Virus record (IMG/VR): IMGVR_UViG_2558860161_000001
Reading direction: 5' to 3' (one strand)
Source of the DNA: a virus
Taxonomy: Duplodnaviria > Heunggongvirae > Uroviricota > Caudoviricetes
DNA length: 31,894 nucleotides
The position numbers and the translations under genes were made by a program. This document shows, piece after piece, positions 114 to 296 of the stretch. Position 1 is the stretch's first letter. Each line of letters opens with the position of its first letter. Below the pieces are notes generated by a model. That model worked only from the letters and a program-made list of their open reading frames with translations. It was not told the origin of the DNA and searched no databases.

Positions 114-178
114 CGAACGTAGGCCTGATGCGGCGTGATTAGACTTGAGATAAATGACAGGGGATAAGTGAGATAATT

Positions 179-213
179 ATGGGAAGTACTGGGTCAACAT
201 GGGAAGAGACTGG
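179..213. repeat. Direct repeats ATGGGAAG-N(1-2)-ACTGG at 179..193 and 199..213 near the prophage left end; candidate transposase-binding sites
   Basis: Two near-identical 14-15 bp direct repeats about 20 bp apart in the non-coding stretch between appX and mor. Related half-motifs AGACTGG/AGACTTG occur at 141..147, 207..213 and 250..256, and GAGATAA(A/T)T at 147..155 and 170..178. Confidence 0.4.
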
Positions 214-296
214 ATGGAATATGCAATAACCTTACAGTATGTGAAAATAAGACTGGCCCGAAAAAAACAGAACTCGCACCAGCCTGATTGCAGATA

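Follow-up and report, generated by a model that had tools for sequence, protein, structure and literature searches.

What separates the E. coli gene appX from the phage mor gene at the start of this DNA, and at which base does the chromosome give way to the phage? The window, by which we mean the whole 31,894-nt stretch analysed, carries appX at its left edge (stop codon at 111-113) and mor on the reverse strand (stop at 297-299), with a gap of 183 bp between the two stops. A first-pass annotation of the sequence had placed a prophage left terminus directly downstream of appX, with the host sequence broken at 137-140 inside a REP element, and had taken the repeats in the gap for terminal transposase-binding subsites. 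The host side of this region contains:

21..113, forward strand: appX coding sequence (host; 30 aa, identical in sequence to b4592, the K-12 appX)
114..135, forward strand: host appX-appA spacer, matching K-12 up to base 135 and diverging from 136
123-135: 5' arm of a REP palindrome, GCCTGATGCGGCG (host)
130-135: GCGGCG, predicted left copy of a 6-bp target duplication, by the rule from six other insertions

Across the insertion point, E. coli K-12 reads GCCTGATGCGGCG|CATTAGCATCGCATCAGGC with the REP intact (in its wider spacer context …AAAAGTTAACGAACGTAGGCCTGATGCGGCG|CATTAGCATCGCATCAGGCAATC…), and the appA ATG lies 80 bp past the appX stop codon. This REP, an imperfect palindrome GCCTGATGCG…CGCATCAGGC that is intact in the K-12 appX-appA intergenic spacer, is represented in the window just by its 5' arm at 123-135. 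Since the window follows K-12 through base 135 and then diverges, the prophage was inserted within the REP palindrome, and the 3' arm is predicted to sit beyond the prophage. In K-12 coordinates, 22 nt lie between the appX stop and the insertion point, and a further 57 nt lead up to the appA start. Alignment to this prophage-free locus puts the host/phage junction at 135|136, and the phage begins at 136 with 5'-TGAT; homology to other copies of the prophage starts at 133-136. A left terminus directly downstream of appX is thus borne out, as is the REP half that has lost its partner to an interruption of the host sequence, while the break moves from 137-140 to 135|136, the 'TGA' that had been counted as part of the REP half being phage bases.

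Comparison with complete E. coli genomes gave the same division. The appX part was matched by almost all of 5,426 genomes, whereas the match from base 133-136 onward was found in ~345 complete E. coli genomes at unrelated loci. These prophage copies lie in adiA, narU, gadC, rlmC (rumB), nrfA, dsdX, paaZ, gspL and other genes; the appX-appA insertion was present in none of the 5,426 complete genomes compared. The element is a new insertion of a known, widespread kind. One hit among the E. coli insertions adjoins the REP-associated transposase gene rayT, and hotspots adjacent to REP/BIME elements have been reported for Pseudomonas transposable phages of the D3112 group (PMC5977238). No REP preference is evident here, because most of the listed E. 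coli insertions lie inside ordinary genes.

The sibling copies made it possible to define the ends of the element to the base. Four close siblings have the ends 5'-TGATTAGACTTGAG…GCGCGGCGCATCA-3' (in longer form 5'-TGATTAGACTTGAGATAAATG…TTTATCGCGCGGCGCATCA-3') and are flanked by the direct repeats GTAGCT, CCCTGC, GCAACG and CCATAG, one pair per copy. Two copies of a diverged lineage, with a left end ~92% identical, have the same structure, with GCTGCT and GCGGGT as the flanking repeats. A 6-bp duplication and 5'-TG…CA-3' termini were therefore found in six of six independent insertions, rather than the 5-bp duplication that had been anticipated. For one of them we verified the empty site: when the adiA locus was rebuilt with a single GTAGCT, >1,700 genomes matched it at an identity of at least 99%, and all matches listed were 100% identical over 72 nt. 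As the site with one GTAGCT matches uninterrupted genomes, the duplication is exactly 6 bp.

The sibling in AW1.7, which is 99.9-100% identical to the window and interrupts adiA, spans 34.3 kb, and by this measure the right end of the window's prophage lies ~2.5 kb past base 31894. The TG at 136 is seen in the window's own copy, the CA end in sibling copies only. Since the right junction falls outside the window, the GCGGCG duplication and an intact appA are predictions: GCGGCG should recur after the right end, the right junction of this copy should read …GCGCATCA|GCGGCG|CATTAGC…, and …TTTATCGCGCGGCGCATCA should be followed by GCGGCGCATTAGCATCGCATCAGGCAATC, with the appA start 57 nt further. 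A search of viral contigs and metagenome contigs for the right junction as CGCGGCGCATCA-N(0-8)-CATTAGCATCGCATCAGGC found no match, and a viral contig scan did not find the left junction of the appX insertion.

What kind of phage ends in this way? Three genes of the leftward early operon identify it:

297..686, reverse strand: mor (129 aa), which closes the leftward early operon; Pfam Mor PF08765 at E = 1e-42
3738-4904, reverse strand: AAA+ (ExeA-like) partner ATPase (Pfam AAA_22, E = 3e-20)
4915-6684, reverse strand: rve-type DDE transposase (589 aa; Pfam rve), homologue of BcepMu gp09

The Mor protein is identical in the sibling copies (RefSeq WP_001281697.1). On the reverse strand, the early operon runs from an HTH regulator (7606-7911) through DUF3102, the transposase, the AAA_22 ATPase, DUF3164, DUF2786 and GemA/gp16 to Mor, with the ATPase gene directly downstream of the transposase, a position equal to that of BcepMu gp08. 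The forward strand carries lysis genes, a Mu gp27-like small terminase, head genes and P2-like tail genes. The Pfam rve match of the transposase covers residues 152-282 at 31.4 bits, just below the 32.6 cut-off. By tblastn the protein is 67.8% identical to that of BcepMu over 98% of its length, and 68.8% identical to that of phiE255; identity is 99.8% to Escherichia phage Phi06_2974 B, 97.8% to Klebsiella phage KP12, 93% to Escherichia phage PhiKM (filed under Bcepmuvirus) and 57% to Pseudomonas phage B3. Its nearest non-phage relatives are IS481-family transposases, a weak similarity of 24-27% identity over ~60% of the protein (E 1e-8 to 1e-13). The early operon is inverted relative to that of Mu, with mor nearest the left terminus, a layout found in BcepMu (BcepMu01) and B3 (ORF1). 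Such an inverted left-end region is common to relatives of BcepMu (PMC3091646), which have TG…CA termini and a transposase with an rve core (PMC2628397). Together with the junction and the ends, we consider it very likely that 136-296 is the left end (the attL equivalent) of a ~34.3 kb BcepMu-type transposable prophage.

Several features of this group of phages were recorded alongside. A DNA adenine methylase gene (9248-10042, reverse strand) stands alone between the repressor-side genes and the lysis cassette and is conserved in siblings. The siblings end with a Gin-like serine recombinase and oppositely oriented tail-fibre/assembly fragments (35212-36228 in sibling locus L001, with equivalents in L003-L005), an invertible segment for host range, comparable to Mu G or P1 C, that lies beyond the right edge of the window. 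In the sibling prophage of strain 510016 (L055, 6186-7987), the baseplate J gene is interrupted by IS100 (IS21 family), so this copy is probably defective. The 40.5 kb record NZ_CP132021.1 (L056), deposited as a circular 'plasmid' of E. coli JCH8249, contains the phage and ~5-6 kb of chromosomal genes (amidohydrolase, carbamate kinase, DUF1116), and looks like an assembled phage-host junction or an excised circle and not a plasmid. Two short ORFs at the left end of the window, 194-337 (reverse) and 199-396 (forward), were dropped; they overlap mor in antisense and lack support.

With the Mor protein as a query, we obtained 43 loci from other enterobacterial genera, 32 of them with a recognisable left end (30 distinct). 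The 30 distinct left ends, from >14 genera (among them Pantoea, Mixta, Erwinia, Brenneria, Pectobacterium, Dickeya, Photorhabdus, Xenorhabdus and Trabulsiella), were aligned, and all but one begin with TGAT next to unrelated flanks. The exception, in Brenneria alni (L032), begins with TAAT and has a degenerate terminus (TAATCAAAAC vs. TGATTAGAAG), which suggests a decaying copy. Ten Mor loci (L016, L017, L019, L023, L035, L037, L040, L042, L046 and L047) have no recognisable end of this kind downstream of mor; there the end is of another type or the locus is rearranged. Invariant or nearly invariant blocks in the alignment are TGAT, the two AGATA cores, AATT(A/G)TGGGA, TGGGAAG and CAGTATGTGAAA. 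Against relatives with 69-76% nucleotide identity in mor, the left end is 67-74% identical in nt 1-46 from the terminus, 59-68% in nt 47-80, 57-77% in nt 81-115 and 26-40% in nt 116-161, so that the first ~115 nt are conserved about as well as mor itself. In some close relatives, mor is separated from the left terminus by an additional ORF of 330 nt (37263-37592 in L056, where it is annotated as 'phage protein Gp27 family', and 34523-34852 in KP12, L053). The phage in the window is without it, and the left non-coding end thus varies in length within the group.

The outermost part of the end consists of two contiguous units:

136..158, forward strand: terminal 23-bp unit L1; starts 5'-TGAT, core TTGAGATAAAT at 145-155 (PWM score 15.9)
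159..181, forward strand: second 23-bp unit L2; core GTGAGATAATT at 168-178 (PWM score 18.4, best in the window)

The repeats listed in the first-pass annotation are all present where it had placed them, among them GAGATAAAT at 147-155 and GAGATAATT at 170-178. A repeat finder returned exactly two direct-repeat families in 100-320, one being TGAGATAA at 146 and 169, 23 bp apart, and the other ATGGGAAG at 179 and 199, 20 bp apart. The motif GAGATAAWT occurs twice in the 31.9-kb window, both strands included, and both copies are at the left end (expectation 0.24; 4 of 100 shuffles reach two matches). A repeated 8-mer in a stretch of 160 bp would not be rare on its own (~0.2 by our estimate), and the weight of the repeats therefore rests on conservation and on the opposite end, not on the repeat count. 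We compared the units at both ends of the E. coli phage, BcepMu and B3, with right ends taken as the reverse complement:

E. coli phage, left end: nt 1-23 TGATTAGACTTGAGATAAATGAC; nt 24-46 AGGGGATAAGTGAGATAATTATG
E. coli phage, right end: nt 1-23 TGATGCGCCGCGCGATAAATGCG; nt 24-46 CCCATTTCCGTGAGATAAATGGC
BcepMu, left end: nt 1-23 TGAAGAGAGGTGAGATATTTCCA; nt 24-46 AGGGAGAACGCGCGATATTTCCG
BcepMu, right end: nt 1-23 TGAAGCGCGGCGCGATATTTCAG; nt 24-46 CACGTCGACGCGCGATAAATTCG
B3, left end: nt 1-23 TGAGAGAGAGTGAGAAATACCAG; nt 24-46 GGTGGGGGAGCGCGATAAAGTGG
B3, right end: nt 1-23 TGTAGCGCGGCGCGAAATTTGGC; nt 24-46 GCGGATTTGCGCAATAAATGACG

Both ends of the E. coli phage and of BcepMu begin with TGA and share the core G[T/C]G[A/C]GATA[A/T][A/T]T, with GATA at nt 14 and nt 37. 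B3 has the same register with more degenerate cores (GAGAAATA, GCAATAAAT), and its right end begins with TGT. The sequence between the cores varies freely among the ends, and the AGAT-AATT of L2 is invariant in the 30-sequence left-end alignment. A scan of the left end with a PWM built from 14 cores, a training set that partly includes the window's own two sites, found these two sites only (15.9 and 18.4; next best 4.9). The scan found no third transposase site in the left end, and right ends also carry two. One internal match, GTGCGATATAT at 6601-6611 on the reverse strand, reaches 16.3, on a par with the terminal sites. It falls within the transposase gene, ~75 nt from the 5' end, and could be a chance match or an internal site of regulatory or enhancer-like function.

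Each end has a tandem pair of sites, and the pair at one end is inverted relative to that at the other; their fixed distance from the cleavage site and their conservation between phages with transposases 57-68% identical argue that the tandem GATA-core units are likely transposase-binding sites; the terminal TG of L1 would be the end that is cleaved and joined. The proposal that the repeats are terminal transposase subsites therefore holds in part. GAGATAA(A/T)T is shared by both ends and recurs inverted at the right ends of the sibling copies. The right end has no ATGGGAAG/ACTGG repeats, so these are not the shared transposase sites, and the AGACTGG at 250 belongs to the stem of a probable terminator.

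Could the region be something other than a functional end of a BcepMu-type phage? That the whole 114-296 stretch is native host sequence, with its repeats arising by chance, has next to no chance of being right: just the 22 host bases at 114-135 speak for it, while in K-12 and in thousands of other E. coli genomes the REP is intact and appA follows appX at 80 bp, and bases 136-296 move with the prophage to other loci and other genera. The boundary at 136 might instead be a deletion scar or the edge of a decayed remnant, given that mor is unusually near host DNA when compared with Mu, where it is internal. However, mor is the first gene at the left terminus of BcepMu and B3, whose virion genomes likewise start beside it, so an end beside mor is a genuine genome end and no truncation. 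The same terminus recurs to the base in dozens of independent insertions in >14 genera, and sibling copies are complete (34.3 kb) with matched right ends and duplications, which makes a scar or remnant edge exceedingly improbable. A true Mu-family end, with three 22-bp MuA-type sites and a 5-bp duplication, is the identity implied by the 5-bp check that the first-pass annotation had in mind, and we find it very improbable. It would account for the TG…CA termini, for Mor, GemA and the Mu gp27-like small terminase, and for insertion at many sites. Against it are the 6-bp duplication in all six insertions, two sites per end in a 23-bp register, and a transposase of the rve/BcepMu type and not MuA: its sole Pfam match is to rve, just below the cut-off, no Mu-specific Pfam domain was found in it, and its nearest non-phage relatives, at ~25% identity, are of the IS481 family. 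A search of the PDB at E up to 1 returned no MuA chain, only marginal retroviral integrase cores.

The nearest known systems include the Burkholderia phages BcepMu and phiE255 (Bcepmuvirus) and the deposited enterobacterial relatives PhiKM, KP12 and Phi06_2974 B, which share the gene order with a leftward early operon ending in mor, and a transposase that is 68% (BcepMu) to 93-99.8% (the other three named after phiE255) identical. BcepMu also has the TG…CA termini, the GATA-core units at nt 14 and 37 of both ends, and YGG motifs at nt 45, 55, 65, 75 and 80 of the left end. It differs in a left non-coding end of 364 bp (161 bp here), a terminal TGAA (TGAT here), and an acyltransferase at the right end where the siblings have the Gin-like invertase and invertible tail-fibre segment; the host here is E. 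coli. In Pseudomonas phage B3 (Beetrevirus) the early operon is likewise inverted and mor is ORF1; the transposase is 57% identical, the end architecture is the same, and the left-end GTGGGATGTACTGGGAC of B3 is shared with ATGGGAAGTACTGGGTC of the E. coli phage, but B3 is a siphovirus with different tail genes, a left end of only 123 bp and more degenerate cores. With Mu, the phage in the window shares DDE replicative/integrative transposition, TG…CA ends, several subterminal transposase sites and homologues of the gp27 small terminase, GemA and Mor. The duplication is 5 bp in Mu and 6 bp here, the Mu early operon runs rightward from the left end, where its repressor gene also lies, and no similarity to MuA could be detected in the transposase of this phage. 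Each Mu end contains three 22-bp MuA sites, L1 being set off from L2 and L3, in contrast to the two contiguous 23-bp units per end found here. Tn552 has two directly repeated 23-bp transposase sites per end, 6-7-bp duplications and a separate ATPase, and IS481 makes 6-bp duplications. Like rve transposons of the Tn552/IS481 type, the phage has an rve core, weak IS481-family similarity and a separately encoded ATPase partner, although it is a 34-kb phage and not a small transposon. By analogy, the end layout appears to resemble Tn552 more than Mu. The comparison of the transposase itself covered IS481-family sequences, and a place in the Tn552/IS481 group would be a tentative assignment.

Internal to the two units, the left end has a second repetitive element and an adjoining conserved box:

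180..217, forward strand: YGG(G) motif array, with starts at nt 45, 55, 65, 76 and 80 from the terminus, ~10 bp apart
235..246, no strand assigned: conserved box CAGTATGTGAAA, nearly invariant in 30 left ends; on the reverse strand UUUCACAUACUG, directly after a hairpin

The ATGGGAAG…ACTGG repeats, seen as ATGGGAAGTACTGG at 179-192 and ATGGGAAGAGACTGG at 199-213, are part of this array. YGG positions are kept within one or two nt in the left ends of the E. coli, Brenneria, Pectobacterium, Dickeya, Photorhabdus, BcepMu and B3 phages, with four of the five motifs in most enterobacterial lineages; the starts are 45, 55, 60, 65, 75 and 80 in BcepMu and 44, 54, 64, 74 and 79 in B3. TGGGA and TGGGAAG are invariant or nearly so in the 30-sequence alignment. 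The array persists in phages as far apart as those of E. coli, Burkholderia (BcepMu) and Pseudomonas (B3), in surroundings whose sequence has diverged. Right ends have no YGG array past ~nt 55 and carry the first two motifs at most. With a spacing of ~10 bp, the motifs would fall on one face of the helix. Mu pac lies in its left end, and since this phage encodes a Mu gp27-like small terminase, a packaging (pac) site is a candidate function; our guess is either this or an architectural, bending element for left-end assembly. That the array and the adjacent CAGTATGTGAAA box form a distinct, uncharacterised cis element of one of these kinds (pac, or curved or protein-bound architectural) is a tentative reading, to which we give slightly less than an even chance. 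Three further searches were negative: no IHF site matching WATCAANNNNTTR at ≤1 mismatch was found in 136-299, Rfam gave no match in 1-800 at E up to 1, and left-end motifs elsewhere in the phage (for example as Mor-dependent promoters) were limited to scattered one-mismatch 11-mers at chance level.

The repeats inside the end might alternatively be outward promoter elements directed into host DNA, as in some insertion sequences. Two outward sigma-70-like matches on the reverse strand, TTCCCA-18-CATAAT (205-176) and TTCACA-16-CATATT (245-218), point this way, as do the three promoter-like sites in 1-800 (0.7 expected) and the conservation of the TGGGAA and ATT(A/G)TG blocks in enterobacterial relatives. 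Each match scores just 9 of 12, however, the match at 245-218 has a -10 that relatives do not conserve, the YGG phasing in BcepMu and B3 comes without promoter-like hexamers there, and a promoter role leaves the mirrored GATA cores at the right end unexplained, so we hold this to be unlikely. The promoter matches in 176-245 (reverse strand) overlap conserved left-end blocks and, if active, would drive transcription through the terminus, antisense to appX.

The remaining repeats had been grouped as AGACTGG-like copies at 141, 207 and 250. They read AGACTTG at 141 and AGACTGG at 207 and 250, and dissolve into three different things: the copy at 141 falls within the terminal unit and differs from relative to relative, the one at 207 belongs to the YGG array, and the one at 250 forms one arm of a hairpin after mor. 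This hairpin belongs to the last feature of the end:

244..285, reverse strand: probable intrinsic terminator of the early operon, with a hairpin at 285-250 followed by UAUUUU at 249-244

Past the mor stop, the mor-sense RNA forms the hairpin and then reads UAUUUUCACAUACUG. RNAfold gave -17.6 kcal/mol for the window's hairpin, with z = -2.75 in a 65-nt fragment and z = -1.5 in an 81-nt fragment, so that taken alone it is moderately better than shuffles. A hairpin is also predicted in six relatives whose stems differ in sequence (z from -2.1 to -6.2), in each case stopping immediately ahead of the same U-rich box. The hairpin region is 26-40% identical among relatives, against 57-77% for the rest of the end. 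A fold retained despite a changing sequence, at the point where the early operon finishes, suggests an intrinsic terminator. We grade this as probable only, on account of the imperfect U tract and of a simple terminator scan that found none, having missed this hairpin because its loop is >8 nt. 

Taken together, these features suggest how the prophage may have arrived. Its insertion into the REP palindrome between appX and appA would have been a DDE transposition event, with the rve-type transposase (4915-6684) binding, as the sequence suggests, the two tandem 23-bp units of each end (cores at 145-155 and 168-178 on the left). The transposase would then pair both ends, cleave at the terminal 5'-TG/CA-3' and join the ends to the target DNA with a 6-bp stagger, giving the predicted GCGGCG duplication; the AAA+ partner (3738-4904) presumably delivers the target DNA. 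Inward of the units, the YGG array at 180-217 may act as a pac site or as a bending element for left-end assembly, and it is followed by the conserved box at 235-246 and the terminator at 244-285 (reverse strand), which would end the early operon after mor.

For the host, the consequence concerns appA, which the first-pass annotation had noted as absent and as either separated from appX or disrupted. It is absent from the window because ~34 kb of phage lie between appX and appA. Separation agrees with the prediction made here, whereas disruption does not: the insertion is 57 nt upstream of the appA ATG in K-12 coordinates, and as the insertion point precedes the start codon, the coding sequence should be intact, displaced by ~34 kb. 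Read-through from the appCBX promoter into appA would be lost. The gene is thus probably intact yet cut off from the appCBX promoter by ~34 kb of phage.

With the prophage boundary now fixed to the base, the locus offers a model of the ends of enterobacterial BcepMu/B3-type phages, with TG at the terminus, a pair of 23-bp units at each end and 6 bp of duplicated target, which prophage finders could use for calling exact ends. The only possibly new part may be the conserved YGG array specific to the left end. If the reading of it as a distinct element is true, it could be read by the Mu gp27-like small terminase, or could set the left end apart from the right in transpososome assembly. This conserved left-end element is a candidate pac site, and the current understanding of transposable phages is unchanged by these results as a whole.
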